From Protoeuglena noctilucae (taxonomy: Eukaryota): 36,563 bases of DNA. The stretch's first letter is position 1, and each line of letters starts with the position of its first letter. Below are positions 113 through 35,202 of this stretch, one piece after another. The notes under the pieces were generated by a model that was not told the DNA's origin, ran no database searches, and was given only the letters and a program-made list of their open reading frames with translations. The DNA is taken from assembly GCA_958009085.1 (NCBI GenBank), contig OY253677.1:992001-1028563 (forward strand). Reading direction: 5' to 3'. The translations under genes and the position numbers were made by a program.

Positions 113-456
113 CCGCGCGCTCCGTGCCCTTCTCGCGCAGGACCTGGTAGTCCTGCGCGGACAGGATCTTGGCCCACGTGCTCTCGGGCGTCGACTTGTC
201 CAGCTTCTCCGCCATGGCGCAGACCGAGGTGCGCAGGAAGCGGGGGTATCCTGCAAACGAAGGCCTTATACGCGCGTTCGGAGTAGCACTGCGGGCCTGG
301 ATAGAGCGAAACGGTGCAGACGCATCCGTGGCCACGCCCTGGAAACGGGTGCTCCCGCCCGCGGCATCGGAGCTCGCCGGGCCAGATCCCCTGTGCATCG
401 AGGACAGAAGCTAGCAAGGGAAACGTGGCGATCAGCCAAGGCCGGCAACAGTGCAT
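113..456 (-). CDS. MSRB: Peptide methionine-R-sulfoxide reductase MsrB, 5' part only (continues past the left edge)
   Basis: Exons 456-378 (GC donor) and 250-113 (GT donor) give MHCCRPWLIATFPLLASVLDAQGIWPGYPRFLRTSVCAMAEKLDKSTPESTWAKILSAQDYQVLREKGTERA(G). W..IL...Y.VLR.KGTER is the MsrB/SelR N-terminal signature. Not in the ORF track. The first exon is less certain; an alternative ATG lies at 215. Confidence 0.8.
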
Positions 457-936
457 AAGCGACCCGCACGATTGAAAAGCCGTGTGCCGCGCCCACGACC
501 AGGCTCGAGTCGCCCGTTTCCTCAAGCACCGCTATCATAATGATGTCTGCTATCTGGGCCGCGGATCTCCCGCTCACCGGGGACCTTGGTGGTGCCCAAC
601 ACCGTGCGAGCCAGGGACGGCCTGGCGAACGTGGCCATGGGGCGCCTGTGATGCGATTCCGCTGCTGCCGGACGACCTTGGTGGCACAAGCTCAGTAATA
701 AATGATGGCACCTCGCCGGCTGCGATCATGGCCGGACCGGTCGGACTGACCCTGAGTCCGGGCCGCGGCCGGTGTCGCAGGCGCTGTCGGGGGGTCGCCC
801 TTGGTAGGGAAGAGAAAAACGGACGCGCAGTGTCGCGCAATCTGCCGGAACCGGCCAAGTTAGTGTGCGCGGGCTGGCCCACCTCGCGGCAGCCGAACCT
901 CGCGCTTTCGCGCCTGTCACCTGACGCGTAAGAACC

Positions 937-3900
937 ATGTCGAAGACGGTGAAGATGAAGGGGCTCACGGTGAGGAACCTCGTGGCTCCCCTTGCCACGC
1001 GGATGGGCACGCGCCAGTGCGCCTCGCAAGCGGCCTGGCCCCGCACCTGATGGACGCTGCGAGGCCCCAGCCCGCACCTTACCCTGTCCGTGACGTGGAC
1101 GCTGGGCCTGGTTTCCTGACGCGGGATTCCAGGGCGCGAGTGGGGCGCTTCAAAAGCGCGCAAGCTTTTCTTCCCTCCCGGCGACATCTGCGCCCGGCTC
1201 TTTGCGCGCATCCGCATGAGTTGCTTTGCGACAGCTGGCTCGCGAGTGCAGTCCCTCACAAGCGTCGGTGCAGGGGCGCTAAAGGGTCGGGTCTGCTCTG
1301 CGTGTCCGTCCTTGCCTGCGGAAGCCGCCCGCATTCGGCCCTCGGCGCCTCTCCCGCAGAACTTCATCCAGGAGATTCGGGATTGCACGTCTAAGGAGCA
1401 GGAGGAGGCGCGCGTGGCCAAGGAGCTCGGCAACATCCGGTGAGGGCAGCACTCCTCGCGCGCCGCCTGCGCCCCGGTGCCCGGATCCGCGCCTTGCGCG
1501 CGCTCTTGCAAGAACCGGATGCATTCGTGCCGGACCCGATCGCCCCCGCCCCGCGCGCAGTGCGAAGTTCAAGGCGGAGAAGGGCGTGTCGGCATATGAC
1601 CTCAAGAAGTACACGTGGAAGCTCATGTACATCCACATGCTGGGGTATCCGATCGAATTCGGGCACATGCAGGCGAGCGAGCAGCGGGTCGGCGCGACGC
1701 CGCGGGGGCGGCGACACCGGGCGTGCCTGCGCTGCCCGCGCATGGCTGTGCAGAGACCCGGCGAGGCAAAGCAGTGGCCCCCTGCGTCTCTCATCCCTCT
1801 TCCTCACCTGTGAGACACCTGGCCCACTCCTCTGCTCCCCCAGGCCCTGGAGCTCATGTCCGCCCCCGCGTATGGGGACAAGCAGGTGGGGTACATGGCC
1901 CTGTCGCTGATGCTGGCGGAGGACCACGAGTTCTCCCGGATGTGCATCAACAGCATCAAGAGCGACCTGCTGTCCAACAACGAGGCCTCCATGTGCCTGG
2001 CCCTGGCCTTCGCGGCCAACCTGGGCAGCGCCGAGTACGCCGAGGCACTGGTGAGGAGGGTGGGCTGGGAGTGGGTGTGGGAGAGCAACAGGGTAGACTG
2101 TGACGAGGCACTGGTGATGATGAGGGGGTGGGTGGAAAATTTTACTGGTGCGCTGGTGACCTGGGTCACCTCGCCTGACCCAACTCACTCCCCCACTCCC
2201 TCATGCCTCGCCCCTCCGTGCCCCCAGATGCCGGACCTGGAGCGCATCGCCACGCAGAGCTCCCAGCGGCCCGTCATCCGCAAGAAGGCCGCCCTGACCC
2301 TGGCCAAGTTCGCCCGCCGCGCCCCCGACGCCGTCAACCTCGACCTCTGGAGGCGCGCCCTCCCCGTGGCACTCGAGACCCGGGACCTGGGGATCCTCCT
2401 CACCCTCGCCACGCTCCTGCAGGTGCGGGGAAGGACAGGGAGCTGTCGCTGCCGCAGAGCACGCAGGCTGGTAGCTACGCTGGGAAGGCAGAGAGGGCGG
2501 CTACATGCCAGCGCCACACCACCCCAGAGTGTCACCCGATCGTCATTGCCACCCTTCGCCACCTCGTCGTCACTTGCGTCTCAACTGCCACCCCTTCCTC
2601 GTTCCCCCAGGTCATCTTGGAGCACCACGGCCCCTCGGGCTTTGAGCCGTGCGCCGCCCGCCTCCTCGACACCCTCCGCCGCATGGTGGTGCGCCCGGAG
2701 GAGGACAACGCCCCGGGGGTCGCCGTCACCCGCGACTACACCTACTACGGCATCCCGTCCCCCTGGCTCCAGGTCAAGTGCCTCCGGTGCCTGCAGTACT
2801 TCGACCTCACCACCAGCATCGACCTGGGCTCCCTCTCCCAGCTACTCCACCAGCTCCTCGGAGCGTCCGCATCCAAGTGAGACGGGACAGCGGAACAAGT
2901 AGGCTATTACGACTTGACAGCATAGATGCAAAAGCAATTGCACCTATCATGGACAGTATCTACCAGTACCTCATCGCCCCTCCCACCCCACTCTTTCTCC
3001 TCACAACATCCCCCCCCTCCCCCCCAGCACCTCCACGTGGCCCCCCGGCAAGGTCAACGCCCTCTTCGCGGTGCTCCTGGAGGCGGCCTCCCTGGCAGTG
3101 CTGGCGGAGGCGGGGGGCGGCCCCCTGTCCCTGGCCACGTCGTCGATGCTGGGGCGCATGGTGGAGGGCAGCGACGCCAACCTCAAGTACCTGGGGCTGG
3201 AGTACCTGGGCAAGATGGCCAGCATACCGGGGATGCAGGCCGCGCTGGCCGGCATGGAGGTGAGTCTAAATCAGCATGCGGTGATATGGGCCATGCTCTG
3301 GTCTAGGTAGCCAGCGAAGCTACTGGACGCCATCGTTTCCCGCTCGCCACCCCCACCCTCACTCTCACCATCACCCTCACCCCTCACCCTCATTGCCACC
3401 CTCAATGCCACCCCCACCCCCACCCTCACCCTCACCCTCACCCTCACCATCACCCTCACCCCCGCCCTTCCCCCCCCCCAGTCCTTCCTCCTCGGCTCTT
3501 TGGCTGACGAGGACACCTCCATCCGCCGCCGCGTGGTGGACCTCCTCTTCCTCGTCTGCACCGACCGCAACGCCAACGCCGTGGTCAAGGAGCTCCTGGC
3601 CTTCCTTGGGCACGCGGAGGTGGCGGTGAAGGAGGACGTGGCCCTCAAGGCAGCGGTACTGGCGGAGAAGTTCGCGCCGGACAACAAGTGGTACGTGGAC
3701 ACCCTCCTCACGCTGCTCAGGTGAGGGCATGGCAGTGGTAGGTGGAGACCCTCCTCACGCTGCTCAGGTGAGGGCATGGCAGTGGTAGGTGGAGACCCTC
3801 CTCACGCTGCTCAGGTGAGGGCATGGCAGTCAACACCCTCCTCACGCTGCTCAGGTGAGGGGCAGGAGCGGGTGCGGGTGCGTGGCAGTGCGGGTGCAGG

Positions 3901-6441
3901 TGCGGGGGTCGTGCATGGGCAGGACTGAAAATACAAGCACTCTGCGCCACATGATAAACGCTCTACGCATCATCACTGACAATATCCATTAACCACTCTC
4001 CGCCCATCCTCCTCTCCCCAGGGAGGGCGGCGAGTACGTGGGCCCGGACATCTGGCAGCGGGCGGTGCAAGTGGTGACCAACGACGCGGCCCTGCGCCCC
4101 TTCGCGGCCGAGCGCAGCCTGGCTGAGCTGGAGGAGGGCGGGGTGCTGTCGGACTACTTTGTGAGGCTGGCGGGATACCTGCTGGGGGAGTACGCGAGGG
4201 TCACGGCGCTGGAGGCCGAGCGCGTGCGGAGGGTGAGGGAGAGGGGCATGCGGGGAGGGGTGCGGGTGGAGATGGGGATGGGCTGCGACAGTGCGACCGA
4301 CTGCTGTAGCAAGGAGGGATGATGGCAGTGGACCGGTGACCAGTGACCAGTGGCCATGCCGATGCACTGCTATGAGGAACGGCCTAGGTGAAGGGACCCC
4401 TGACATACACAACGTAACCACCCCACACCCCCTGCCCTTCCCCAGGTGCTGATGCAGCGCTTCCACCTGGCCAGCCCCGAGACGCAGGCGGTGCTGCTGT
4501 CGGCCATCACCAAGATCTGCGTCTTCCCAGGCAAGGCTGGCACCTCCCCCGCCACCCAGGCCGAGGTGCGGGGGCTCCTGCAGAGGCTCAGCCACACGGC
4601 GCATCCGGAGCTGCAGCAGAGGGCCGTCGAGTACCTAAAGCTACTGGTGAGGGCGGGGCTGTCAGGGGTGGGGGTAAACTTGCTGAGCCAGCCAGGCTGC
4701 CTTGTAACAGCTCGCTCGCCCTTCAGCCCTTGTGCACGACTGCTGTCCTCCATGTCAAATCTACCTCTCACCCCGCTCCTACCCTTACTCCACCCCGTTC
4801 GTTACCACCCCCAGTCCGACCCCTCTGGCCAGCGTGCCCAGACCGTCCTGGCCACGATGCCCCGCTTCCCACCCCGGGAGTCCTTCCTCCTCCGACGCGT
4901 AGCTGCCAGGGGGGCACCCAGCCCGGCTGACGCCGACGCGGCCGCCCAAGGCGAGCAAAGATGTGAAGTTGACATGAGGGTGCAACATGTAGATGGCACA
5001 TGGTATTTAGCGATTGACAGACACTAGTGATACCAGGCGACGGGGACAGCGCTCACTCCGTCTCTACCCCTCCCTCCCCAGGCCTCTCCGCCCTTTCCGT
5101 GTCCCTCCCCACGCAAGAGGGCGACATGTTAGGCATGGCCCCCTCCACCTCCACCTCCGCCAGCAACGCCCGCCCCGCCCCCTCCGCCCCCGCCGACGGC
5201 ATCGACGCCCGCCTCGGCCCCAGCCAGCCCAGCCAGCCACCCCGCGCCGTCAACAGCCACCCCGCCCTTCCCTCCTCAAACGGCGGACCCCCCTGTGGCC
5301 CCCCGGACGCCCCCGCCGCCTCCGCCCCCTCCCCGGACGGCCTGGTCCGCAACGAGGCGTCCCTGCGCGGGTGGCCCCCCGGCCTGCGCAAGCTCTGCGT
5401 GGGCGACAGCGGGGTGCTCTATGAGGACGCGTGCCTGCAGGTCGGGATGAAGGCGCAGGTCGTGGGGGCGGTGGGGCGGCTCATGCTGTACCTGGGGAAC
5501 AAGTCGGGGGTGGCGCTGGTGAGGGGGCGTGGGGGCTGTGTCGATGGCCGGACAGGCCACGCACGGAGGGTCGCTTTTCTTTGGCACAGTCGCTTTCCTC
5601 AGGCACAGCGTAGCGTGCTCGCGGACCCTTCACTGCCTCCACGCCCATCCCTCCTGCCGTGTCATCGCCTCTCCTCCCGCACACCTCAGCTGTCCATCCA
5701 CCACATGCCCCTCCCACCCCCGCAGACCCAGCTGTCCGTGTCCATCCACCCCGTCCCGCCCGGCTACCGCGCCCAGCTCCTCGACCAGGCCCCCCCGGCC
5801 CTCAGCCCCGGCCAGCAGCTGCCACTCAAGGCCGCCGTGGCCGCGCGGGCGCCCTCCCTGCCCCTCCCCACCCTCCGCATCGCATTCCTCGGACCCCAGG
5901 GACCCGTCCAGTGCGCCGTGCCACGTGAGCCCCGCGCTCTCTGCAAGCCAGGCCTGCCCCACCCCGCGATCTCCCACGCCCCACCCCCTGCAGTCCCTCA
6001 CCCGCGCCCCTCATGTTACTGCCCCTCATGTTACTCCCCCTCTCCCCCGCAGTCCCCGCCGTGCCCCCCCGCTTCGCCCAGCCCGCCCCCGGTCTCTCCC
6101 GCGAGGCCTTCTTCGCTGCGTGGCGCGCCTTCCCCCACCGCGCCCAGCGCTCCGGCCAGGCCGCCGCGCCCCTCCCCCCCGACCGCGTCAACGCCGCCCT
6201 GTCCCTGGCCCGCCTGCACCCGACGCCCCTCATCGACCCCAGCCCCGACAATGCCGTGGGGGCCGCCACGCTGCCCTTCGAGGCCGCGGGGGAGGTGCGC
6301 GTGCTGGCGAGGGTCGAGGTGGAGCCGGGCGCCCGGCAGCGGTTCCGCGTCACGGTGGCCGCGGGGGGCGGCGCGGGGGTGGACGGGGCTCCCGTGGCGG
6401 AGTGGACGGCCGCGGTGGTGGCGGGGGTGCTGGAGGGGTAG
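937..6441 (+). CDS. AP2A: AP-2 adaptor complex alpha subunit (alpha-adaptin), 14 exons
   Basis: Exons 937-969, 1360-1439, 1561-1672, 1844-2050, 2228-2422, 2611-2876, 3028-3259, 3482-3720, 4022-4232, 4446-4646, 4815-4950, 5082-5518, 5726-5924, 6053-6441 join in frame. Motifs MKGLTNFIQEIR, KELGNIRAKF, KKYTWKLMYIHMLGY..EFGH, KQVGY, YTYYGIPSPWLQVK, DTSIRRRVVDLLF, ELQQRAVEY, and ear domain GVLYED..LQVG.K. Confidence 0.95.
3347..3463. repeat. Degenerate (CACCCT)n hexamer microsatellite in AP2A intron 7
   Basis: Directly visible run caccctcaccctcaccctc... with variants caccat, cactct and cacccc. Confidence 0.9.
3687..3861 (+). repeat. 47-bp tandem repeat (3 full copies plus 1 shortened) spanning the AP2A exon 8/intron 8 junction
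   Basis: Unit agtggtaSgtggaSaccctcctcacgctgctcagGTGAGGgcatggc. Donor copies at 3721, 3768, 3815 and 3855. Confidence 0.95.
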
Positions 6442-8625: not shown

Positions 8626-10119
8626 ATGGCCACCGGGGACACGGCCGTGGCTCAACCGACCCACCCCTCGCCGCAAGATGTGAATGAGGATGATGAGCCG
8701 TGGGAAAGCGACGGGCGAGTTGCAAGGCTCACCCGTCACGCCCGTCATGGGCGTGGCTGGCTGGCCTTTCGTTTGTCGTTGCTGAAGGGGCCCCCCTTCC
8801 ATGGTCCCGGCGCGTCGCCAAACCCTGCATTTCGGTAGCTTGCTCGATCTTTGCGATTTCTGCCATCCGCAGGGAAGAGCGCGCGCGGAGGAATCGGAGG
8901 CGCGTGGAGGAGCTGCGCGAGGGTGCTGCGCCCGTCTGCGGCGTCTGTGGGGAGCGCCCGAGCCGTTACTGCTGTCCGGGCTGTACACAGCGCTTCTGTG
9001 GGTTGGATTGCTCGAGGCAACACAAGAAGGACGCCGGATGCAGGTGCGGCGCGTCCGCCGCTTGCCACAGTTGCCACGAGCAGTTATGGCCGCTCGACAC
9101 GGCCCCTCGCTGCCCTTTCACGCCCTCAGTGGCAAGAGGGATCGCACGGCGTTCGTGTCGCTGCCGGAGATGGACTCCCGGCACTTGCACTCGGACTACC
9201 AGCTGCTGGAGGAGACGGCGCGGGCCGCGGACAACGCCAAGCGGCAAAGGCCCGCGGGACCCGACCAGGTCCTTCCACGGGTGTGTTTCCAGCGCAACAC
9301 TTGCCCCTGCCGTCTGCCTCGCTCATCCAGGTCCTGCCCCAGCTGCTGTGCTGCCTGTCTACAGTGCACCCTTCCGCCACCCTTGTGCCCCAGGCCCGGT
9401 CGCTCCTTCGGCAGCACGCAGCGGGTCGCGGCATCGAGGTCCTCTTCCAGGCCCCGGGCATGGAGCGGTCGCGAGCCAACTCCTCGCGCGTTGTGGGGGG
9501 CGCTGCGGAGTGGACCGTGCAGTGGGCCTTCCTGGGGGCGCCGTTGCGGCTGCTGACGAAGAGGGCGCACGAGAAGCGTGAGGTCGGGAAGCTGCTCCGA
9601 CAAGTCTTGGTGAGGGGAGGACGGTGCTGTGTGTGGAACTGTCGTGCTTGATGCACAGCAGGGTTACAAATCCGTAAGACTGCCTGTGCACCACCCTGTG
9701 CGCCCTGCTGCCGTGGCCCATGCCCGTCAGTTGAATGCCTTCTCCGCGTCGCTGTCCTGCAGGACACGAGCAAGCCTGGGGCGGCGCAGATGGCCCACGA
9801 GCTGAGGCAGTATGTGGACGCGCTGGCAGAGGCGGCGGAGGGAGTGGGGTGCCTGAAACTACTCATGCGCGCCGAGCGGCGACCTGCCAATCAGCCGGGG
9901 TACTACGCGGTGGACCCCGAGGCGGCGCTGGGGGACGTGCTGAGTGGCAAGGTGGTCGTGGAGTTCCCCACCATCGTCGTGGGACTCCCGGGGGAGGCAG
10001 AGGGTTTGCCGATGATCGCGCAGGGGGGCATGGAGCTCAAGGTGTATGAGGATACGAAGGGTGACAGCGACACGGACGCCCAGCGTGCTGCACTGGACGG
10101 CGGCGCCTTACCTGCATAG
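8626..10119 (+). CDS. ZNHIT6: Box C/D snoRNP assembly zf-HIT protein (BCD1/ZNHIT6-like), 5 exons
   Basis: Exons 8626-8714 (GC donor), 8873-9043, 9130-9280, 9394-9609, 9763-10119. zf-HIT CGVC..RYCCPGC..FCGLDCSRQHK..GCSGKRDRTAFV, LHSDYQLLEE, GMERSRANSS, WTVQW, L.DVLSGKVVVEFPTI.V. Confidence 0.9.
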
Positions 10120-10303: not shown

Positions 10304-12594
10304 ATGACGAAGCGGCGCGTCACCTGCGAGGTGGTGGCGGGGGGCGACGGCCGGCTTGCTCCGTTCGCCGTCTACTTTCCCTCCGGCCATCGCCCCACGG
10401 TGAGGCGTCGCAAAGGGCAGGCAGCGCACCATTCGCTTGAAGTCCTGCTGCCGGAGCAACTCGCCGCCGGGCTCAGCCGCTCGTTGTGCGGCGCGTGCAC
10501 GTTGCCGGGCGTGACAATTCCCATCGCTCCGCGATGCACGAACGCCGATGCTTTGGGTCGCCCTGGCATGTGGACCTTGATATCTGTCGCTTGGCGTGCG
10601 ATTGCCTGGTTATATCCACGGGTGATGCGCCTGACGAGGTGCGCCTTGGCTGCTACTGCTGAATCGACGTGCGACTGCGCTCATTCTGCCGGTCTCGGGA
10701 TGCAGGATGACGAAAGCTTCGAAGTGCATCAACACGTGTCGAAGCGACACCACTACGTCGTCGCCGGAGAGCGGGAAGGGGTCGCGCTCGTGGGCGAGAC
10801 CAGCGGGGCTGGGGAGGGACCGGCGAGCCAGTTCGCGGTGGGGCTGCTGGACCGCGCATCGGGGAAGCTTCGGGTGTGTCTGCCAGAAGGGCTGGGCTTC
10901 GCCTGCATGGAGGTGCGGGTGGAGGGGGTGGACTACGTGGCGGGGGGGCGGGCGGACGGGCGGGCAGATGAGCTCACGCGGGAGGAGCGGGTCGCCCGCA
11001 ACAAAGCCCTAGTAGCGGAGGTGACGGCGCGCACGTCCCGGCATGCGGGCGCGCTGCCGCGTCCCGAGCCTCGCTAAAGCGCCGGCTAACCCTCGTGCCG
11101 CAGTTCGGGTCCCTTCGGCGGCGGCGGCAGATGAACCTCAAGGAGGGCGCGGTGGTGCACGAGGGCGCGATCGCCGGCTCCTGCGCGCTGACACAGATCC
11201 TGACGGAGGCGGGGGAGAAGGCGGCGGGGGAGGGACTCACCAAGGAGAAGGCGAGGGCGCGGGTGCAGGTGCGGATGGCACCGGGCCATTGCAGCAGTGG
11301 GATGACTCATAAGTTGTCGTCTTGTCTGCTCAGGTGCTGGCTGCGGCCCACGGTCATCGGAACCTCCCGCCCCACGACCCGACCGCGCGGTGGCCGTGGC
11401 AGGCCTACCCCTGGGAGGAGCTCTGCCCGGCGGGGCCCGCGCAGTCCCTGCGGACGGACGAGCTGCTGCGTTCCGCGGCCAGCCCTTCTGCCATGGAGTA
11501 GCTCCAGGGTGGCAGCGACTTCAACGGCTACGTGCGGTGCGTGGCGTGCGTGGTGCCATGAATCGCCGTCTGATCTTGATGCGCGGTTCCTTGCGAGGGA
11601 AGATCTTGCGGGGCATTGCATGGGCTCGCTGGGAATCGAGGGACGGACTGACCCGTGCGGCACCTCGGGTGCTTCCCCCTTCATCAGCCCCCGCCCTGGC
11701 TTGCCCCCCCAGGTCCCGCGCGGTCGTGCTGCGCGGCATCCGGGACAAGGACGCCCGCCGCCGTGCGGCCAACTGGCTCGCCTTCGTCCACCCTCTTATG
11801 GTGTACTGGCGCGCCCCGGGAGTGGGTGAGCGGGCAGGGTGGCCATGCGCCACGACATGACGCGGCTTTAATGCCTACGTTTGGATGGCGAGCTTGGCAA
11901 GCGAGTCGCCTGGTTTAGGGAGATGCAAGGGCTTCTCCCCTGGCTCCCGCAGTGCCATACCCGGAGGACGGCCTCGGGGAGCTGGCAGCCAAGTGGAACT
12001 GCCCTGAGGGCGTCGTGGACTGGATGCTGTCGACATTTGCGTCGCGGCAGCCGAGCGAGAGGGAGCCGGGGAAAGAGAGCTTCGTGCGTTCCAAGGTGCC
12101 CTTTCCGCTGGGTGGTCGCGGGCGGCTGAGCCAGTGCATGCCCCTGCTCTGCCGAGCGCTCGTCGCTCCTGGCCGCGACGCAGGACAAGAAGGACCTGCT
12201 GACATGCTACGTCTTCGTGGCCGCGCTGGGCGCCGAGGAGTGGGCCATGGAGGACACGGTCTTTGACGAGCTGCGGTTCGCGCTGAAGGCCGACGCCAAG
12301 AACCTCGCCAAGGTCGCCAGGTGATGGCGTGGCGCGCGTGGAATAGCTGGCGTTGGCGTCAACGTCTCGCTTGACAGGCCTCGCGCGCGCCTGCCCCGTC
12401 GCAGGGAGCTTGGGTGCGACGTCAAGAGCTCCCAGGCGAAGGCGAAGGACGGCAGCGCCATGTACAAGGTCGGCCTCCTGTCCGCACGCGGAGGGGAATC
12501 CGACAGGCGTCTGGAGGACTGCTTTAACCAAGCCCAAGCTGCAGCGCGCGAGCCGGCGGTAGGGTTTTGCCAATGCTGCTTCTGGCGCAAGTGA
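10304..12594 (+). CDS. RPA49: RNA polymerase I-associated A49/PAF53-like subunit, 8 exons; disrupted as assembled
   Basis: Exons 10304-10399, 10706-11020, 11104-11250 (or 11268), 11334-11536, 11713-11825, 11953-12095, 12184-12320, 12405-12594. Motifs VYFPSG, QFAVGLLDRASGKLRV, NKALVAEFGSLRRRR, NLPPHD.TA..P.QAYP, KDLL..YV, RELGC. In-frame TAG at 11499-11501 and a likely +1 base near 12526. Confidence 0.75.
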
Positions 12595-13199: not shown

Positions 13200-14765
13200 A
13201 TGCGGCGCGCGAAGCGTCCTGGCGGGCGGGCCCTGCTGTGGCTGTTTGTGGTTGCGGCGCTCGTGCTGACGGCGGCCACCCAGACGTCCGTGCTGCCCGC
13301 TGACTGGCCCGCGGAGGGCCCGGTCCCCAGCAAAATCGAGTTCGTCAACACCGGCGTTTCGTCGGGGGCCACAAACGCCCACATGCCGCCAACCCAGGCG
13401 AGTCTAGGGCAGCCGCTGAGGGTTGTCTGGCTCAGCTGGCTGCGGGGCGTCGCTGCTAAACAAGAGACATCCCCGCTATGTTGCAGGACCGAGGGCGCAC
13501 TCTCCGTGACCAGATAAACGTCGCCACGACAGGTGACGAGGGGGCGGGGTGGTTCGTTAATGCGATGCATGCGTCGTCATCCCATCGTGACAAACTACCG
13601 TGATCCCCAGTCGATGGATGCATCTGTCATCTACCATGGGTTTCCTGTCGATGACTTGTTTCTCTCTTCTCAACCAACTCCTGCCAGTGGCAGTGGCAGC
13701 ATCGATATCCTGTCCTCCATTCCCCATCCCACGTGCCCGCGATGCCCTTAGGTAGCACCGCATCCGTCGTCACTTCTGGCAACCCAGCCACGGCCGCGAC
13801 CCCCGCCGCACCCCCAACCGCCGCGACCCCCGCCGCACCTCCGCCTGCCGCGCCCGCCGCGCCTGCCGCCGTCCAAGTGAACATCGTGCCTGCCGCATCC
13901 ACGACCACCACCACAACCACCACCACTACTACGGCAGCCCAAGTGAATTCCACGGTCACCGCCCCGAGCAGCCCCCCTGACGCGCCTCCCACTGCGGCAG
14001 GTGCCCAGGGACGCGTAATGATGACCTCACCTCGTCCCTCTTACCCCACCCCGCCATCCACTGCTCGCAGAGACCTCTGCCTACGCTTGAATGCGAGGGC
14101 GTGGGCATTGATTGCGCCGCCACCGCTTGCCCACTCCTCCCGAGGCCCGCTGCCCCGCAGGCGGACTGGGCGGGGCGCTGGGCGCGCTGGGATCCTCGGC
14201 GCAGAAGCTGACGTTCGGGTCCGGGGTGTTCGGGGACTCGCCCTTCGTGGGGTCCACCGTGAGCATCAAGCAGTTCACTGGCAGTGGCGGCGCGGGGGTT
14301 GGAGGAGGGCAGAACTGTGCCGGGCGAGTGGCTGCATGATTTGAGGAGCCTTGTTATGTTCCACTTGGCACTACTGTCACCCTACCATGTCCCGGCTTCG
14401 TCTCTCTCCCCAGCACCTGCGACCGGGCGGGCGTCATTGCGTCGTGCGGGGGCGTGGCGTCCGGCAGCCCCCTCTGCTGCCAGGCGCTGGCGGGCGTGTC
14501 GTCCTGCCTCTGCAACGGGCCCTTCTGGTGTGGCCTCCAGAGCGCCGTTCCCAACCTGGCCGGGGTCATCCAGGTGCCCTGCGCAGCCACCGCTGCTGCT
14601 GAGCATCCGCTTGCCATGGCACTGCATACTGATGCAGTGCAAGAAGACATAGCTGAGCGTGCGGTGGGGAGTATCTCACGTCTCGATGCGTCCCTTCCGC
14701 AGAGCTGCATCGCCAAGGGACAGGCCCCGCCCACGATGCTCCCGGCGCCCCCTCCCTCGTGCTAA
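13200..14765 (+). CDS. Secreted Ala/Pro/Thr-rich protein with C-terminal nsLTP/prolamin-like Cys motif, ~292 aa, 6 exons
   Basis: Exons 13200-13397 (GC donor), 13487-13532, 13752-14000, 14161-14323 (GC donor), 14414-14573, 14703-14765 join in frame. Signal peptide ALLWLFVVAALVLTAA, then TPAAPP repeats and poly-Thr, then C-X3-C-X8-C-X9-CC-X8-CLC-X5-C-X15-C-X17-C. Confidence 0.75.
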
Positions 14766-16581: not shown

Positions 16582-17508
16582 ATGCGTCCCACGGAAGGCG
16601 GCCATCTCGCATGGGTCCTGCCCCGCCTTCTCCTGCTCTTCGTCCTGGCCCTGCTTCTCCTCGCCACCACTGCGTGCGCTAGGCGCATCACCATCGGCGA
16701 CGACATCGGAGAGGACGCCGAGGACCTGCGAAGATGGGGCCTCAAGTCGGGGCAGGAGGTGCTGGACGACCTCAATGAGCGGAGGCGGCAGCCTCCCGCC
16801 CACACCGTCGATATCGGCCGGCTCGGCGACGAGGGCTACATGCGGGAGATGACCCTGGTCCGTGGCTGCGCCTGGCCTGTGTCGAGCGAGCCTCAGCTGG
16901 GAGGCTGGTGATGACACCCACCTGCGCCACGCTTCCCACGAGAGACACGCGCCCCTGTCACTGCAGAGGAACATCCGCGGCCCGACGTTGACGTTCGTGC
17001 GGCTGGTGCCCGACGCGTCCCGCGTCCAGTCTGCCGTGGAGCGCCTGGCTCGGCTGTGGACGGAGAAGCTGCGGTCGGGGCAGGTCGACGTGCGCTTCTA
17101 CGCCGCGAGCCCGCAACAGATCGTCGCGGTGGTCGATGATGCCGAAACCGCCCTGCTCCTGCGGGACTTCTTGCTGGCCGAGCCGCTGGTGTACGAGTGG
17201 GAGGTGGAGGCGAGTGGGCGCGTGTGTGCAGGACGTGTGGGGCTGCTGTCCAGGAAGAGCCCACCCTGGCAGCGGCCCATCAGAAGGCCGCTGACGCTGG
17301 TGGCCTTGCACCTGACCCAGGGTGGTCTCCTCGCCCATTGCAGCGGACGCAGTTCCGTCGTGTGGAGGACACGGTGCCGTACGAGGAGCTGGACCCGGTG
17401 GCGGACCGGATGCGCGCGGCAGAACGGGCCGCTGAAGTGCGGGACAGCACGCGGCGCTGGCAGGAACGGCGGGCAGTGGGGGCAGGGGACGAGATCGCCG
17501 ATCTGTGA
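16582..17508 (+). CDS. MESD/Boca-like ER chaperone, 227 aa, 3 exons
   Basis: Exons 16582-16857, 16967-17209 (GC donor), 17344-17508. Signal peptide; GPTLTFVRL...LARLWTEKLRSGQVDVRFY...LRDFLLAEP.VYE.EVE..QFRR matches the MESD core; ends in IADL (xDEL-like). Confidence 0.75.
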
Positions 17509-17573
17509 TGGCAATGGCCGTTGATTCTTGGATTTACGCAGGTTGTTAGGCTTCAAAAACCTTCCATGCATTT

Positions 17574-17997: not shown

Positions 17998-20900
17998 ATG
18001 TGGATCATTGTCCGTTACTCTGTGGGCTTCCTGCGCGCCACTACGCTGCACGTCCTGACAGCATGCGAGCAGGCAAGGAATCGCTCGCGCATCTCTGCGA
18101 CGCCGCTGCGAATCGCTGCGCCATCATGTCGGCAGCTCTTTGCATTCGATGCCGTATTGATGGTTACCACCATGCTGCGCGCCTGCAGGTCCTTTCGGCG
18201 GTGGATCCGGCCTCCCGCCTGCAGTGGCTCGTGGCGCACACCCAACAGGTCCTAGCGTGGCTCCTCGCCTGGGGCATCGCCCTCTTTGGCAAACTCTCCT
18301 GGTCCCTTCTCGCAACTGTCTCCTTCCTGACGCTCCTGGCCGCCCTAGTCCTCACGGTGCGGGCCAGCGCAGTCGCCTCTCGCCCCCAGCAGACCAAGAC
18401 GGCAAGTCGTCACCCTCCCCCCAGCCTCCCCGCCCCAGGTCGCCCACGCCAGGGCTTCCCGAGAGCGCCGCAGGCTGGCGCGATCGCTGCGCCGCGCCCG
18501 CGCCCGCCTGGCCGACGCGGACGTGGTGCTGGTCACGAATGCCGAGCCCGGGGAGTGGCTGAACAAGATGCTCGTGCAGTACTGGCACTCGTTCGTGCAC
18601 CCCAAGCTCCTCAACACCATGCTGCGCAGCGTCCAGGGCAAGCTGGACGAGGTGGTCGACCAGGGCGTCCTGTCCCTGTGGGTGGAGAAGTTCCACCTGG
18701 GACTAGCGCCCCCCGTGCTGGTGAGATGCGGAGGCGACCAGCAGGGACGCAGCTGCAGAGTTACGTGCAACACCGTTGCCTGACCTCATACGCATGTCTG
18801 CCGACGCCACCCGCGCAGTCCAACTGGAAGGCCTACGCGCACCGGGACGGTTCGAGGGGTCTCGCGCGCCTGGAGGTGGACGTGCACTTCGCCACTGACC
18901 AGGCGGACATCGAGGTGACATGGGAAGGGTGCCTGTCGGGCGAGGAGATAGGGGAGAGGAGATATAACCCCACGTGCATTAGTGGGCGTGTCATGAGCGA
19001 GGGGCATGCTTGGTGCGCCCATGCTGCCTCCGTGCACATCCCCGCTTGCCTTGCCCCCGCAGCTCAAGGGCCAGGGCAACATGGTTGGCTTGGCGCAGGT
19101 CATCATCTCTGGTCTCGCAGTCGAGGGTGAGGCGGTGCTCCCTCGACAATGCACACCCAGCATTGCATGCCTATGTCAACTAAGGCAGTCCTCATCCCCA
19201 TCCCGCCCAGGCAAGCTGGCCATGTACCCCGTCGCCAACCAGCGCCTGCTCGTGTTCGGGTTCAAGGGCAGCCCCGAGGTCAGCCTCGACTACAAGATCT
19301 TCATCGGGGCCAACGAGACGCACAAGCTCAACATCGGGGCCGTGCTGCCCATCCGGAGCATCGTCGAGAACCTGTTCAAGGTGAGGACAGCGACCGCATG
19401 GCATAGTGCGTGTGTGGCGACGTAGGAAGCACGAACAGGGGTACGCTGCAGACTGCAGGAGAGGGTCAAAGGCTGTGGTCGCTTGCTCCCTGCGTGCGTG
19501 ACCACGTGCCCCTCGCGTGCTGCCTGCAGGACCTGATGATTGAGCCCAACCGACGCTGCGTGGGACTGGAGCTGCAGGTGCGCCGAGGATGCCTAGTGAC
19601 TAGCGCAGGGGGCGTTGGGTAGCAAACAATGCATGCTTGACCAGACCCATGCATTGGTCGTCACTGGTGCTCTGCTCCGTCTCTTCGGCCCGTGCCAGTG
19701 TCGCCCTGTGTCATCACCTGACCGCCCCTCGCACTCCTCGCCTCCCCTGCAGGACCTGAACCGTGACCCCGTGGTGGGGAGCACGGCCGTGCGCGTCAAG
19801 GGCGTGAGCGGGGTGCGGCCCACGCAGGGCCGGCGCCTGCAGGTGGACGTCACCTGCAAGGACTGGTCCCGCACCGCGCAGACGTCTTTCGACGGACCCG
19901 ACGCGGCCATCGACGAGGCCTTCGTCATCACCATGGTGACACCGGCAGCAAAGCAGTTGACAGCTTCCATTTCCGCCAAATGTGCTTCCATCTGCCCCTC
20001 CCATGTCGTCCAACCCCACCTCCCACTCCTCTGCCACCCTCTCAGGCAGAAAAGGCGTACACCATCGACGTGGTGCTCCGCGACCGCGGCCGCTCCGAGC
20101 CCCTGGGCCGTGCCCGCCTCGAGGTCAACTTCCTCAGCGACGGCTCCACCGCCTTCTGGGGCTCCGGCCTCGACGGCTCCCCCGTGGCCCGCCGCGTGGC
20201 CCCCTTCGAGTCATGGGAGGTGGCCCTGGCCGTCATGGCACCCGACGAGGAGGGGCGGCCCAGGGTCACGCGGGGGGCCGTGCACCTGGCCGCCACGCAG
20301 CAGGGGTGGAGGTTCGCGCAGAGGGCGCCCCCGGAGTTCGTGTGCTATAGGCGAGAGGGATGGGGCATGCGCAACGCAGGTCTCCCATCACATGCCTGAC
20401 CCCCCAGCCTATCTCCCACATTCCGCCTCCCCCAGGTCCCTGGGCCCTCGCACGCTCCTTCTCCTGGTGGTGGAGGCGGAGGGCCTCCCCAAGCACGTGG
20501 CCAGCGCCTACGCCAGCGTCACGTACGGGCCCCTGCGCGTGGACACCCACAAGTGCGAGAACACGCAGCGGCCCGTGTGGAACGCGTGGATGAAGGTCGA
20601 GGAGAGCCCGAACCCGGGGCTGAGGTGAGAGGGCCTGCGGAGAACAGACTGCCGCTGTGGTAGAGTCAGTGACATCTTCGGCTCAACAACTGAACAACTG
20701 CTCCTCCGCACCCCAGGCGCGTCAAGGTGCAGATCCGCAACGCCACGCGCGGCGTCAAGTCCGACGAGCCCCTGGGCCACGCCTGGCTTGCCCTGGACGC
20801 GGTGCACGAGTGCCACCCTCTGGACCAGTGGCTGGACCTGGAGGGGCCCGCCAAGGGGGGCCGCGTGCACCTGGTGGCCGAGGTGCGCCCGGGGAGGGCA

Positions 20901-23238: not shown

Positions 23239-25346
23239 ATGAGCGGCGACGAGCCGGAGCGCCCGGGAGCTTCTATGGCAGGGGATGGCGTCGTCTCGGG
23301 GCGGGATGGTGCCGGCGCGGAGGATCGCGGGGGCGTCAGGGCACTCCCTGTGGACGGCCCGGCCAGCCACGGCGCGCATCCTCGGATGGACGACGACGGG
23401 GAGGAGGACGAGCCGGGCCATCTCTCATCAGACGCCGATTCCATGGGCAAGTCGCGAACGGCGCCGCTCTCGCTGGGACCGCGTTCTACGCTGGCCACCC
23501 ACCGTCCCTCTCCCCGCCCTAGCTGACTCGCTGGCCCTTGTCCCCGCGCGCCCAGACTCGAGCGAGGAGGAGGAGATGGTGGCGTCGCCGCTGCGCGTGC
23601 TGCTGGTGGAGGACGACCCGCTGACCACCAAGGTCGTGCGGGCGCTGCTGCGGGCGTGCGGGTACGAGGTCCTGCTGGCCAGCAACGGGAGGCAGGCCAT
23701 GGGTGAGGCCGGGGATGCGCTAGGACCGGCACCGCGGGTGTCTTCAGAGCACCCCGCCGCCCCACACAGTGCAGCACCATACGCGACCCGTCCCTCTGCC
23801 CCGCACAGATGTGATTGACCGCGAGGGTGGCAACGTGGACGTGGTGCTGACGGACGTGCTGATGCCGGAGATTTCGGGGTTCGAGCTCCTGATCAACCTC
23901 ATCCAGCAGCCCCAGTACGCCCACATCGCCATCATCCTGATGTCGTCCTCGTCCTCCCAGGCGAGCTGAGCTGGGCATGAAGCAGGGGCGCGCAGCGACG
24001 TGGTCAGGACTGTGGATGGTTTGACTGTGGATGGTCTGTAACTCGCCCCCCACTGCCCGCCCTGCCCCAGGACATGGTGATGCGTGCGCACGAGGCAGGC
24101 GCCGCGGACTTCCTCTGCAAGCCCGTGAGCCGCGAGGCGGTGCTGGAGCTGCGGCGGCACGCCCACGCGCACCGGGACACGGGGCGGAGTCGCGAGCCGT
24201 CGGACGGGGCGGCGGGGGCACGGGGAGCGGGGTCGCCCGTGGCTGAGGGGGCGGGGAAGCGTGGGGAGGAGGCGGGGACGAGCAGCAGCCAGGGGACGGG
24301 TGAGATGGGCGGTGGCATCGCGCGAGCATGGGCTGCGTGCGGCATGGGGTGTGAGTGACGTGCGGCTTAGGGATGCTTTCGCATGCCATGATGTGGAAAT
24401 GGAATGTTGTGCTTGGTTGGCATTGCAGAGGGGCCACGGACGCGGCGGACGAGCATCCCTGGGCGGGAGAGCGGCGGCGCTGTGGAGGGCGCGCATGGGG
24501 CGGGGGAGGAGGGCGGACAGGCGGTGCAGAGGTGAGGGGGTGGCACGGGAACGGGAGAGGGGAGCAGTGTGCCTCTGGGATGGCAGCCATCGCAACAGGC
24601 GGCGATGATCCATATCGTCGCCTAACCGCAGGCTGCCTCGCGCACTGATGGAGCTGTCGATGATTGGGGCCGAGCGCGAGCGGCTGAGGCAGGCCGGCGG
24701 GGTCGACCCCAGCGCGCAGGCCTTCCCCCGGCCAGGCCCGCGGTCGGCCTTCCAGCCCTTTCAGTCTTTCCAGTCCTTCGCGGCGCTGGTGCCTCGCCCC
24801 GTGCCGCGCCCCTCCGCGGCTGAGCCACGGGGACCCGTGTCCCCTGGGGGGGCAGCCACGGGATCCCCAGGCGCATGGGGCGCGGAAGACGAGGGCGCGC
24901 TGTCGCGGGAGGGCGCACTGGCGCTGACGGACCTGGGGCGAGGCGCTGCGCCTGCGGACGGGGCCGGCATGGCGGCAGAGGCGCAGCACTTCTTTGCAGC
25001 GGTGAGGCATCTTGACGTGGGGAGGCGTCGCGGGTGGCTGCGAGCCCGGGCGTTCTCGCGCTGAGTCCCTTTGCCTACTCCCCCGCCTCAGTTCCAAGAG
25101 GCGCTCAAGCAGGGCCGCGTGCTGAGCCCCGGCGGGCGGCCGGCCAAGAGCGCGGCGGCCGCGGCAGCCCGGGCGGCGGCCCTGTCTCGCTTCCGCGAAA
25201 AGCGCAAGAACCGCACGTTCCAGAAGAAGGTCCGGTACGAGTCTCGCAAGAAGCTGGCCGAGCAGCGCCCTCGCATCGGGGGGCAGTTCGTCAAGCAGGA
25301 GGTGGCCGCGGCGCTGGCTGCGGTGGAGCTGGCCGCTGGGAAGTGA
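23239..25346 (+). CDS. TOC1/PRR-like clock response regulator (receiver + CCT), 487 aa, 7 exons
   Basis: Exons 23239-23446 (GC donor), 23556-23702, 23809-23960 (GC donor), 24071-24299, 24429-24531, 24632-25001, 25092-25346. [78 protein letters not shown]. Confidence 0.92.
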
Positions 25347-25656: not shown

Positions 25657-27530
25657 ATGGACCGGGGCGCGGCCCCGCGCGTCCGCGCGCTTGCTGTGAC
25701 CTTCGCACTGCTCTCATGTCTCCTGAACGCGCTGGCGTTCCAGGCGAGTTCTTTTTGCATTCTGCGTGGCCCTTCAGCACATCTCAACATACAACGATCG
25801 CTGGCTGCCCTATCCAACCCCTCCTGACTTCACAAGCCCTTTCATGAGCCTCGTGCATTCGCAGCTCCCTCCATTCCCTCCCAAGGACTTCCTCTCGCAC
25901 GATGTGACTGCCTCGCCACCCCAGCCTGGTGAGGGACCTCTCCTCAGCCCAGGAAACACAGCTTCGCATCACCCACGCTTGTTACATGTACCCTTGCCCC
26001 GACCTGCGTCGCCGCAGCTGCATATATGCCCAACCCGCCACCTCGCCTCGTGGCCATCGGAGACCTGCACGGTGATCTGTCCGCGGCACTGGCGACCCTG
26101 GAGCTGGCCGGGGTGGTGGCGCCTGGCCACGGGGGCCGCATCGACCGCACCGTGTGGGCGGGTGGGGACACGCTCGTGGTGCAGATGGGGGACTTCACGG
26201 ACCGGGGACCCAGCGAGATTAAGGCGAGGGCACGTCGATGGGGTGATAGAGACGGTCATGGGGATCGCTGCCTGGTCAGTCGGACCGACGAACGCACGAC
26301 TCACTGTGATGTCATGCACCTAGCTTCCTCGTCCCTCTGCAGATTCTGCTGCTGATGCGGTGGTTGGCGTCCCAAGCGCGACGCGAGGGGGGCGACGTGG
26401 TCATGCTGCTGGGCAACCACGACGCCATGCAGGCGAGGGCAGCGGCCGCAGACCAGGGGCACGGAGGCATGCACCTCGCTTGATGTGGTGGCAGTCCGAG
26501 CCTGTGCCTGGCTTGTTTACCCACACCCCAGGTGGCGGGTGACTTCCGCTACGTCCACCGGATGGCCTACCAGGAGACCGCGGCCCTGCTGCCGGGGCTG
26601 ACGGACGAGCAGCGGAGCAGCCCCGAGGCCCTGCGGCAGGCGCGACGGATGCTGTGGGGCCCGGGGGCTCCCGTGGCGGCGGAGATGGCGTGGAACCCCA
26701 CGGTGCTGGTGGTGGGGGACACGCTGTTCGTGCACGGGGGCCTCTTGCCAGGCGAGGGGCGTGGATGGGGCGCAGTGGCTCGTGCCATGCAAAGGACACG
26801 CTGACTGCTCACGTCTATGCCACTTCTGGGCCTCAGGGCACCTGGACGGCCCGGGTCTCCAGGGCATGAACGACGACGTGGCTGCGTGGATGTGGGGCGC
26901 GCCGGTCGAGCGCCCCGCCCAGGGCCACGGCTCGCTGCCCTCCATCTACGCCGACTTAGAGGGCCCCTTCTGGCAGCGCCTGTACTCCAACCTGCCCAGC
27001 AACTTCGTGGCCAGCGAGGCGTGCCCCACGCTGCAGGAGACGCTGCAGAGGGTCAGGTGCGTCCGCTGCAGCACTGGGCTCACGTGGGTGCGAGGCGCCC
27101 CCTGCACTTGCGGCATCTGCGTTCTGGTATCTCCGTCTCGCAGCGACTCGTGGCCGGGGGAAGGTGGGCCTGTCGTCCGCCGCATCGTCATGGGCCACAC
27201 CCCTCAGGTGACGGCACAGGGGCCAGCAAGTGGGCCAGGCATGGTTTCCGGTGTGGCCCCTGGTGATTGTCGGGCGGCATCCCTCAGCGCACCCATCCCT
27301 CGCAGGTGGAGCTGACACCCGGGCTGTTTGGGTCGGGGGCGCGCCTGCTGGGCATCAACGCCGTCTGCGACGGGGCGGCGTGGCGCATCGACGCCGGCCT
27401 CAGCGCCGGCATGTTTGGCGCGGACCCGGAGGTGCTGGAGGTCACGTGGACGGACCGGGACGACGGGGGCGCGGCGTCGACGGTGCGCGTCATCCGGAGC
27501 GATGGTGGCAAGGGTAAGGACGAGCTGTAG
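25657..27530 (+). CDS. Shewanella-like (SLP/Shelph) PPP-family metallophosphatase with signal peptide and C-terminal KDEL, 384 aa, 8 exons
   Basis: Exons 25657-25743, 25886-25928, 26018-26223, 26343-26432, 26532-26751, 26837-27056, 27144-27207, 27306-27530. Motifs GDLHGD, GDFTDRG, GNHD, GDFRYV, FVHGG, GPFW.RLY, MGHTPQ, RIDAGLS. Confidence 0.9.
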
Positions 27531-31626: not shown

Positions 31627-31916
31627 CGGGCGGGTGCCAGGGTGTAACAGCCGGCCGCATTCAAGGACTGTGACTGCAGCGCGCGGGTGCCAGGGTCTGA
31701 CAGGCGCACGCAAGGACTGTGCTGGAAAAGTGGGGTAGGGTTAGCCCTGGGGTAGCGCACGATCAATGCAATTCTCGAGGTACTCTGAAAGCGCGACTGT
31801 TGGCAGCGGAAGCGACTGCGTGCGCCATGGCAAGGGGAAGGAAGCACAAGTAGGAGAAGCACGACAGCGATGGCAGGCGTGCGCTTGCCTGGGGTGGCAG
31901 GTTTCAGCGACGGGAC

Positions 31917-32239: not shown

Positions 32240-32444
32240 CGCAGCCCTGGAGATGCTTTCGCATTTTGTGCCGCAGCGCCAGTAGGTCGTCCCCCTCCGC
32301 GACCCCATGCCTCCTCCGCGTCGATCGCCACCCCCGCGCTGATTCCGGCGACTGCTTTAGCCACTACGCGCCCGTTGATCTAGCGAAAGCGACGCGGGAA
32401 GGGAGGGTCTTTTTGGTTGGGAGGTGCGAGTGCGATCGGAGGTC

Positions 32445-35202
32445 ATGGCGGACAACGAGTTCGCGGAGGAGGAGGTCCTCGACTTCGACGAGGAGCAGGA
32501 GCAGCAGGTGAACCTCCCGCGACGACCAACCATCCACGCTGGGCGGGAAGGGTCCCCCGGCCGAGGCGATGACCGTGGCGTGGCAACCGGCGGCTTCCGT
32601 GGCGCTAAGAAGCTCACGGAGGATGCGCGGGCCCCGGGGTCCCGGAGAGCGTGCTCCGCAGGAGAGGCGTTTCGAGCCGCGCTCATCAGAGCCCGCCCGG
32701 ACCCTCCCGTCGCCCGTCGCCTGATGTATGTGCGGAAGCGGGGGCTTTCCGGCCCTGGTCTGCGCCGGGCAGGTCGGTGGGTCGTCTTCCGTCGGAACGG
32801 CCCGGCCGCGACTCGCCTCACCGCGCGCCGGCCGCTCTCGCTTCGATGATGGAGTGTTGGCGGCAGTCGCCCCACGCTCGCCCGTCTTGATCTGCCTGGG
32901 ACGCCTTCGTCTGTCTTCCTCGCCCTCTCGCGGCCCCTGGCGCCCCCTGCGTTGCTCTTCGCCCGCCTTCGTCTTTCTGGTTGGGTTGTCCGTGTTCTGG
33001 CGCTTTCTCGGGTGCACTGGCTTGCGGGCGGCGGACGTTGGGGTCTTTGCGCTTGTTGCCCAGCCTCGCGCGCCTGCTGCGGCCGCACGGGCCGGCGCCC
33101 TCGTCGCCGGACGGGATATGGGACCGAGGGTGGAGGCGGGGTGGCGGGTGGCCGCGCCCCGCACCCCGCGCGGAGGGGGGGCCCTCACGCCTCGAGCGCG
33201 CCTGGGGCGGTCCTCGCGGGCAGGGCCGCGGCCCGGCGTCCGTCCGGCCGGCGACGGGGCGTCCCCGCGGTACCGGCGCGGCGCTGTCTGGACGGATCGC
33301 CTGAACACCGCCCGCGGCTGCTCTTGGGGTCCCACAGGTCGGCCACGCACATGACGACGGCGTCGCCACGGCCAAGGGGGACACGTACGCCGGCGCCGCG
33401 TCCGTCGGGTGGCGCGAGTTCGCCATCAAGGTGAGCGCGGCGGGGCGGGGCTGGGCATGGGCGGGGACGCATCTTGGGAGTGCTGGCCCCGGTTGCATGG
33501 GTACGCTGCCCTGCCCTTCCGCCCCCGACTCCCCCCGTCTGCTCGCCGCAGGAGGAGCTTCTGAAGGCCATCCAGGAGGCGGGGTGGGAGCACCCCTCGG
33601 AGGTCCAGCAGCAGTGCATCCCCAAGGCCATCGCGGGCGCGGACGTCATCTGCCAGGCCAAGGCCGGCCGCGGCAAGACGGGCGTGTTCGTCATCTCGCT
33701 GCTTCAGCAGCTGGACGTGGTGGAGACGGAGGACGGCAAGGACAAGGTGCTCAACGACTGCAAGGCGGTGGTGATGTGCCACACGCGCGAGCTGGCCCTG
33801 CAGATCCAGGGCGAGTTCAACCGCCTCAAGTCGCACCTCAAGAACATCCGCGTCGAGACGTTCATGGGGGGGGTGCCGGAGGAGAAGGACGTGGCCAAGA
33901 TCCAGGCGAGGGGGGTGGTGCTGCGCCGCCTTGGGGTTGCCGGGGCGGGGGGCGTGGTGCGAGAGTGCCCTTGCCTGGCACAGCGTGCCGCGCTGGCACG
34001 TCGGCCTCCCCCTTCCCACGCCTCCCCGCTTCCCTCTGACCCCCGCAGAAGGCCCAGCCCCACATCGCGGTGGGCACGCCCGGCCGCCTGAAGGCGCTGG
34101 TGAAGAAGGGGGCGCTGAAGCTGGCCAAGCTGCAGTTCTTCGTGCTGGACGAGTGCGACAAGATGCTGGAGAAGGCCGACATGCGTTCGGACATCCAGGA
34201 GGTGTTCGTCCGCACCCCGGTGCAGAAGCAGGTCCTCATGTTCACGGCCACGCTGCCGGCCGAGATGCGCACGCTGTGCAAGAAGTTCATGCGCAAGAAC
34301 CCCCTGGAGGTGCTGGTGGACGACGAGAAGGAGCTGACCCTGCACGGCCTGGTGCAGCACTACGTGTCGCTGGAGGAGGACGGCAAGAACCGCAAGCTGT
34401 TCGACATCCTCGACATGCTCGACTTCAAGCAGGTCGTCATCTTCGTCAAGACGCCCAAGCGCGCAGAGGCGAGGAGGGCTGGGGGGACTTGGGGAGTCGG
34501 TGGCGTGTTGGTAGCCACATAAAGGGTCCGCGCCCTGCGTGGCGGGGATGGACACAAGCTGCGCCCCTCCCCGCGCAGGTGCTGGCCAAGCTGATGCGCC
34601 AGGTCAACTTCCCGGCCATCTGCATCCACTCGGCCATGACTCAGGATGAGCGGAGCAAGAACTTCAACGCCTTCCGCTCGGGGCAGGTGAGACCTGAGAG
34701 CCGAGCTGCGTGGTGCAGCAGCGACGGGGTGCTGGGCCCCGGGAGAGTGACAGGGGCCCACGACTGCGTCCTAGCGGCGAATTGCCTGGTCATAGGCGCC
34801 AGTTAGGCAGGGACGCGCGTGCGGCGGCACCTGAGAGCGCTGACGGCCGGGCCGCCCCGCCTGGGACTGCAGGAGCGCATCCTGGTGTCGACGGACCTGG
34901 CCGGCCGCGGCGTGGACGTGGTGGGCGTGAACGTGGTGATCAACTACGACATGCCCGCGGACGACGACAAGCACGGCAAGGGCGACGACACGTACCTCCA
35001 CCGCGTGGGGCGCGCGGGGCGGTTCGGCACCAAGGGCCTGGCCATCACGTTCGTGGCCACGGAGGAGGACCAGCGCGTGCTGCAGAAGGTGCAGGAGCGG
35101 TTCACGGTGGAGATCAAGCCCCTGCCGGAGCAGATCGACAAGAAGCTCTACTTCCACTCCGACAACCTCTACGACCGCGACAACATCGTCGAGGAGTTCT
35201 GA
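32445..35202 (+). CDS. UAP56: DECD-box RNA helicase UAP56/SUB2/DDX39, 455 aa, 6 exons
   Basis: Exons 32445-32507, 33338-33430, 33552-33905 (GC donor), 34049-34468 (GC donor), 34579-34686, 34873-35202. [76 protein letters not shown]. Confidence 0.95.

Follow-up and report, generated by a model that had tools for sequence, protein, structure and literature searches.

In five model species, GC-AG introns account for 0.37-0.87% of introns, and their 3' signals are the same as those of GT-AG introns (Sheth et al., 2006; PMC1557818). High shares have been published for a small number of GC-rich algae. In Emiliania huxleyi, for which the published share is 50-56%, 56% of 241 curated junctions are GC-AG, and the authors ascribe the GC donors to the GC content of the genome (Feldmesser et al., 2014; PMC4028052). 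In Micromonas pusilla CCMP1545, GC donors amount to 25.6% overall, their share differing between introner-element introns (43.5%) and regular introns (9.7%), and they emerged only when RNA sequencing could place them (van Baren et al., 2016; PMC4815162). The shares reported for two pelagophytes are 14-17% (Aureococcus) and about 14% (Pelagomonas), and that of their low-GC relative Aureoumbra is 0.32% (bioRxiv 10.1101/2024.10.30.620910). We analysed a stretch of 36,563 nucleotides of the Protoeuglena noctilucae genome (contig OY253677.1, positions 992,001 to 1,028,563; hereafter the window). A first-pass annotation of this DNA, made from the sequence alone, had proposed that about one intron in five uses a GC donor, and had stated that high rates are reported in only a few GC-rich algae, which the publications cited above confirm. 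As described below, splicing at GC donors takes place in this window and is frequent. Since high GC-AG shares are already published for GC-rich algae, the window is a further example of a known pattern rather than a new phenomenon.

Public sequencing runs that contain the window comprise marine metatranscriptomes (X1-X4) and DNA-like runs (X6-X9). Contigs of X1, X3, X4 and X6 were aligned to positions 8001-28000 of the window, which yielded 44 joints; 15 of these 44 were listed, and the counts of joints given below refer to those 15. Every listed joint occurs in the contigs of X3 and again in those of X4; these runs are two marine metatranscriptome samples from one study. Eight of the 15 can be cut only as GC..AG, and the remaining seven are GT..AG. 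The eight GC-AG introns lie on the forward strand (exon in lower case, boundary marked by a slash), in a BCD1-domain gene (8715..8872, cgg/GCGAGT), a Mesd-like gene (17210..17343, gag/GCGAGT), a gene of the pseudo-response-regulator (PRR) type (23447..23555, tgg/GCAAGT; 23961..24070, cag/GCGAGC) and a gene for a Shewanella-like (SLP) phosphatase (25744..25864, cag/GCGAGT; 26224..26342, aag/GCGAGG; 26433..26531, cag/GCGAGG; 26752..26836, cag/GCGAGG). The SLP gene has seven introns, each of which is represented in the list of joints; four have GC donors, exactly as the first-pass annotation had it. In the DNA-like run X6, none of the 15 joints was present, and the contig was colinear with the window over 8432-27302. 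No run (X1, X3, X4 or X6) carried a differing letter at any +2 position. Among the listed joints, use of GT donors in place of the claimed GC donors was not observed at these eight sites in either sample.

Run X1 was deposited as RNA, but its contigs are unspliced over many introns, one of them (25979-28000) spanning five, and X1 contains either DNA or plentiful pre-mRNA of the organism. Because these contigs are unspliced, they are uninformative on splicing.

Two more GC-AG introns belong to the gene for the UAP56/DDX39 helicase (33906..34048, cag/GCGAGG; 34469..34578, gag/GCGAGG). A transcript-derived protein, P0004, is identical to the product of the six joined exons over 460 of 460 residues. 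Its contig measures 1,559 nucleotides compared with a genomic span of 2,773 nucleotides and was therefore spliced, and the full identity to the spliced model implies that both GC-AG introns are used. PDB and Pfam coordinates are uninterrupted over the two junctions: the DEAD profile continues from position 92 to 94 at 33906, and PDB chain 1xtj_A from residue 264 to 265 at 34469. In-frame GT sites lie within 60 nucleotides of both donors, eight near 33906 and seven near 34469. Introns that begin with GC, end with AG and are removed from mRNA were thus found at the eight RNA joints and, by way of P0004, at two other positions. A search of metagenome contigs with an exact 28-mer of the UAP56 exon gave no match.

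Homologous proteins and domain profiles support two further GC-AG introns. In the AP-2 alpha adaptin gene (intron 1673..1843, cag/GCGAGC), the Adaptin_N profile is continuous from position 46 to 48 over the junction, and the homologue P0002 aligns without a gap. In a gene for a large C2-domain protein (intron 20351..20435, tag/GCGAGA), the proteins P0124 (61% identical) and P0125 (35% identical) align without a gap. A third protein, P0123 (99% identical), is an unspliced open reading frame and is uninformative. The first intron of the same gene (18073..18188, cag/GCAAGG) is given by the gene model and by the end of an RNA-derived piece: an X4 contig piece terminates at 18068, which fits a left-shifted 18073-18188 cut and represents one side of the joint only. 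The homology data, together with the RNA joints and P0004, confirm that GC donors in this window are real and frequent.

The remaining sites are predicted by the gene model. They comprise an intron in the adaptin hinge (4951..5081, aag/GCGAGC) and two introns in a gene for a secreted low-complexity protein (13398..13486 and 14324..14413); the depth of X3 and X4 is zero over 13337-14670, which covers both of the latter. The candidate intron 11251..11333, in an A49-like gene, had been called ambiguous and is so, as an in-frame GT donor (cag/GTGCGG) is present at 11269. On the reverse strand, an intron had been claimed at 251..377, upstream of the MsrB reading frame. The motif is there, but the intron is weak: it requires a 13-nucleotide micro-exon (390-378) in an unconserved N-terminal leader, and the reading frame could start at the ATG at 215 without it. 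All 18 listed sites, including 377 on the reverse strand, read GGC(G/A)AG (the first G being the last exonic nucleotide), in agreement with the invariant consensus that had been described.

Gene models were produced with a finder built for the window, which gives equal weight to T and C at donor position +2; genes were identified with this finder and with Pfam scans of single exons. When the finder was restricted to GT donors, 170 score units were lost compared with the model that allows both GT and GC. Five of the ten multi-intron genes of the forward strand (adaptin, C2, PRR, SLP and UAP56) were fragmented at the claimed GC sites, the breaks at 1673 and 4951 in the adaptin gene and at 20351 in the C2 gene being examples. 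In the secreted-protein gene, the GT-only model was broken at 13398 and the 5' part of the gene, which contains this site, was dropped; the 14324 intron was replaced by a different one, 14219-14413. The GT-only model recovered six of the 15 listed RNA joints, and the model with GT and GC recovered 12. Three GC choices of the finder were rejected during curation. The GC donor 18363 was replaced by a GT donor at 18357, which both P0124 and P0125 favour; the intron 79-140 was dropped as part of a spurious model; and the intron 31226-31401 was dropped because it lies inside a truncated duplicate.

The motif by itself proves nothing, and the claim rests on the RNA and homology evidence: GGC[AG]AG occurs 63 times on the forward strand compared with 42 +/- 6.5 expected, and 17 of these copies are donors.

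Among the 62 curated introns of the forward strand, 17 have GC donors (27%, 95% confidence interval 17-40%) and 45 have GT donors. The fraction is 10/22 in introns with RNA-derived support and 7/40 in introns known from models only (p=0.035). About 9-11 further introns on the reverse strand are all GT, which brings the total for the window to about 71-73 and the GC share over both strands to between one in four and one in five. The total of 82 in the first-pass count (17-18 GC donors) was therefore too high. A GC-AG share of at least 10% was found within the single 36.6-kb window covered. The share could in principle be driven by a few genes, with a genome-wide GC-AG rate of only a few percent: a single window was sampled, and the SLP gene (4/7) and the PRR-like gene (2/4) supply much of the RNA-supported set. 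However, GC donors are present in nine of the ten multi-intron genes of the forward strand, and for 17/62 the 95% confidence interval does not go below 17%. Such a local effect of sampling appears very improbable.

The donor consensus that pairs with U1 covers nine positions, CAG/GTRAGT. Over these nine positions, GC donors and GT donors have practically the same number of matches (6.76 and 6.73, respectively). When position +2 is excluded, GC donors match better than GT donors, 6.76 versus 5.73 (p=3e-5), and this is also observed in the RNA-supported subset, 6.80 versus 5.83 (p=0.007). At +3 to +5, RAG is present in 17 of 17 GC donors and in 25 of 45 GT donors (Fisher p=0.0005); among donors with RNA support, the counts are 10 of 10 and 6 of 12 (p=0.015). 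GT donors are thus the more variable class, as had been noticed from the letters. A G is present at -1 in 17/17 GC donors and in 43/45 GT donors (60/62 overall). As this position is nearly invariant in both classes, it does not compensate for the C at +2; the compensation proposed earlier for -1, +4 and +5 is borne out for the intronic positions, where GC donors are stricter from +3 to +5, but not for -1. All 17 GC donors read GC[GA]AG from +1 to +5, and none resembles a U12-type donor, for which GCATCC is the criterion among GC donors (PMC1557818). In U2-type GC-AG introns, a better match at the other positions offsets the mismatch with U1 at +2 (Sheth et al., 2006; PMC1557818), and the compensation observed here is this published general rule; it is not specific to the organism.

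The first-pass annotation had attributed the GC donors to a relaxed spliceosome. A U1 5' arm that pairs with +2 C, or changes in U1C, in the ACAGAGA box of U6 or in Prp8, would mean that a C at +2 is no longer a defect, and the GC share of the window indeed exceeds by far the 0.4-0.9% found in model organisms (PMC1557818). Nevertheless, GC donors require an additional match to the consensus at another position and reach the same total complementarity as GT donors, whereas a U1 pairing with C would abolish the need for compensation or move it to the GT donors. Furthermore, GT donors still form the majority (45/62). The equal complementarity of the two classes is what would be expected from a +2 mismatch with an ordinary U1, and argues for an ordinary U1. 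A heritable change of the lineage at the step where the 5' splice site is read, making +2 C cheaper, is therefore quite unlikely. If it had occurred, GC donors at 25-45% in ordinary introns would be the highest regular-intron share in the green lineage. An Rfam scan of the window gave no match, hence no small nuclear RNA gene lies within it.

GC donors may also be spread by a repeated intron family. This is the case for the introner elements of M. pusilla CCMP1545, in which D-IE1 elements carry 79% of the GC donors, the share in regular introns being the lower value given above (PMC4815162). The 62 introns were compared all against all, and the 1,891 pairs gave only two short matches, of 16 and 26 nucleotides; comparison of the window with itself revealed only one duplication and one tandem repeat. 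An introner family is thus largely refuted inside the window, and of the explanations considered it is the one to which we give the least credit.

Selection could maintain GC donors as weak sites for regulated splicing, by way of retained introns or a choice between donors. In animals and plants, GC donors are enriched in genes with alternative splicing (PMC2490688); in E. huxleyi, numerous GC donors go together with a high level of intron retention (PMC4028052); and in the window the better-expressed, RNA-supported genes are the richer in GC donors (10/22 versus 7/40). However, no alternative joint was seen at the GC introns among the 15 listed joints, contigs not being a measure of retention. 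The equal complementarity of the two donor classes, moreover, suggests that GC donors are overall no weaker than GT donors. We consider regulated splicing unlikely as the cause, if somewhat less so than a modified spliceosome.

In conclusion, the GC donors of the window are best explained as ordinary U2-type GC-AG introns in a GC-rich, intron-dense alga, maintained by mutation bias and a complementarity threshold, a reading to which we give a probability of about 0.75. We infer that the cause is the combination of these two factors with a standard U1. The window would represent a GC-rich (66%) marine green alga in which GC-AG introns make up about one quarter of regular, non-repetitive introns. 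Most probably the cause lies in base composition: a GC-biased mutation or fixation pressure would convert T to C at +2. The C would persist only where G at -1, R at +3, A at +4 and G at +5 pair adequately with the standard U1 5' arm, so that the rest of the donor pairing could absorb the single mismatch. As C would be kept only in donors that pair well elsewhere, total complementarity to U1 would come out equal in GC and GT donors.

Several points weigh against this explanation. Micromonas commoda RCC299 is GC-rich and has only 1.5% GC donors (PMC4815162), and a high GC content is therefore not sufficient to produce the trait. The coding sequence of the window (13.4 kb) contains 21 unused exonic copies of GGCRAG, compared with four of GGTRAG. 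Since GGCRAG is frequently left unused in exons, site selection needs more than the hexamer, and the choice of GC sites must depend on something beyond it. The gap between RNA-supported and model-only introns indicates either that models under-call GC donors or that well-expressed genes are richer in them. In addition, the data come from one 36.6-kb window, with 15 of 44 joints listed between 8 and 28 kb; the RNA-supported subset is small (n=22); and 40 of the 62 donors are model-only and were chosen in part for their fit to a donor matrix, a criterion that gives an advantage to GC donors close to the consensus.

For comparison, the seven GT-AG introns among the listed joints, all on the forward strand, are 9044..9129 (cag/GTGCGG), 16858..16966 (ctg/GTCCGT), 23703..23808 (tgg/GTGAGG), 25002..25091 (gcg/GTGAGG) and, in the SLP gene, 25929..26017 (ctg/GTGAGG), 27057..27143 (cag/GTGCGT) and 27208..27305 (cag/GTGACG). 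A gap of 216 nucleotides in the coordinates of the X3 and X4 contigs corresponds to exon 9394-9609 of the BCD1 gene, which matches the BCD1 profile. It defines two more GT introns, 9281..9393 (cgg/GTGTGT) and 9610..9762 (ttg/GTGAGG), the latter derived from contig-coordinate arithmetic with the profile running from 76 to 85. In the UAP56 gene, identity to P0004 places the GT-AG introns 32508..33337 (830 nucleotides), 33431..33551 and 34687..34872; at the last of these the Helicase_C profile also runs over the junction, from 64 to 67. Many introns of the window end in CCCCAG or CCGCAG.

The window contains tightly packed, intron-rich eukaryotic genes, with up to 15 introns per gene, and its GC content ranges from 62 to 72% in 2-kb steps; it shares with the algae of raised GC-AG share the feature of nuclear DNA with at least about 63% GC. 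The finder and the Pfam scans identified, on the reverse strand, MsrB and a truncated globin, and elsewhere AP-2 alpha adaptin (937-6441, forward strand), the BCD1-domain gene, the A49-like gene, the secreted low-complexity protein gene, the Mesd-like gene, the large C2-domain protein (17998-22667), the PRR-like gene (23386-25346), the SLP phosphatase (25657-27530) and UAP56/DDX39 (32430-35202). The PRR-like gene encodes a response-regulator receiver domain and a CCT motif (E=4e-19), an architecture that is that of the pseudo-response-regulator clock genes of plants and green algae.

A segmental duplication of 883 nucleotides (27261-28124 and 31357-32239, 95.7% identity) comprises the final SLP exon, which ends in KDEL, together with the 3' portion of the last intron of that gene and the start of the neighbouring reverse-strand gene; its second copy, 31357-32239, has the appearance of a truncated gene fragment. 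The X6 contigs are interrupted at 27261-27302. In the adaptin gene, a tandem repeat at 3687-3861, associated with intron 3721-4021, holds several copies of the exon end with its donor (CTCAG/GTGAGG); this creates a series of identical candidate GT donors, and the gene finder cut the adaptin gene there. The adaptin intron 3260-3481 is filled by a long C-rich microsatellite of the CACCCT type (3340-3480). Contigs of X1 and X3 both depart from the window upstream of 11152, within an A49-like exon, suggesting that the structure differs or that a paralogue is involved. In the Mesd-like gene, the X3 contig has an in-frame insertion of nine nucleotides behind 16710.

Among named organisms, green algae come closest to the UAP56 exon, the first being Pedinophyceae sp. 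YPF-701 (73%). A UAP56 tree with 28 sequences joins the window protein and three environmental sequences, as a sister group, to Pedinophyceae sp. YPF-701 (support 100/100), the tree being based on one gene with a long branch; the window protein does not group with the named prasinophytes, among which no Micromonas sequence was included. The protein tree thus suggests a pedinophyte-related green alga, a placement that is tentative because it comes from a single gene and a long branch. The nuclear genome of YPF701 has 70% GC (10.1101/2021.10.04.463119). The word "splice" is absent from that preprint, and a literature search that left subscription papers and supplements outside its scope found no report on splice-site usage in pedinophyte nuclear genes. 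In the homologous-protein search, the best match of an adaptin exon was 51% identical, and an exon of the C2 gene had no match; the collection searched lacks long proteins of the organism itself for these two genes.

The environmental loci closest to the UAP56 exon, L001-L003, are 80-82% identical to it, have 68-70% GC and are uninterrupted at both GC-AG intron positions (read-through spans L001:1925-2344, L002:3001-3420 and L003:2438-2857). These loci are either intron-poor at UAP56 or transcript contigs.

The finding is mainly useful for annotation of the P. noctilucae genome, in which gene prediction must permit GC donors, and as a comparative data point. The algae rich in GC-AG introns gain what may be an independent lineage, namely a pedinophyte-like core chlorophyte whose genes hold many introns, and the trait resides here in ordinary introns rather than in introner elements. 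The equal U1 complementarity of GC and GT donors constitutes a natural data set on the pairing that a 5' splice site needs; it could also show the trade-off between GC-biased mutation pressure and this need.

Compared with the systems described previously, the window shares with generic U2-type GC-AG introns the compensation of the +2 C mismatch at other donor positions; the frequency of the generic introns is about 30-70 times lower (PMC1557818). As in the window, the raised GC-AG share of the pelagophytes is linked to a high genome GC (63-70%). Unlike the window, these algae are stramenopiles with less than one intron per gene, and their shares were predicted from annotation (10.1101/2024.10.30.620910). 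E. huxleyi resembles the window in being a marine alga of high GC content (65%); GC-AG introns are mainstream in its ordinary genes and end in AG, and ab initio models under-call its GC donors. It differs in being a haptophyte and in its higher share, 56%, or a GC/GT ratio of about 60/40 (PMC4028052), whereas the window belongs to a green alga and has 27% GC donors among curated and 45% among RNA-supported junctions, in one window. M. pusilla CCMP1545 is likewise a marine, GC-rich green alga, with a nearly identical overall share of 25.6% (van Baren et al., 2016; PMC4815162). Its GC donors, however, are concentrated in D-IE1 introner elements (79%) in a genome with about one intron per gene (PMC4815162), whereas those of the window are found in non-repetitive introns, of which a gene may have up to 15.

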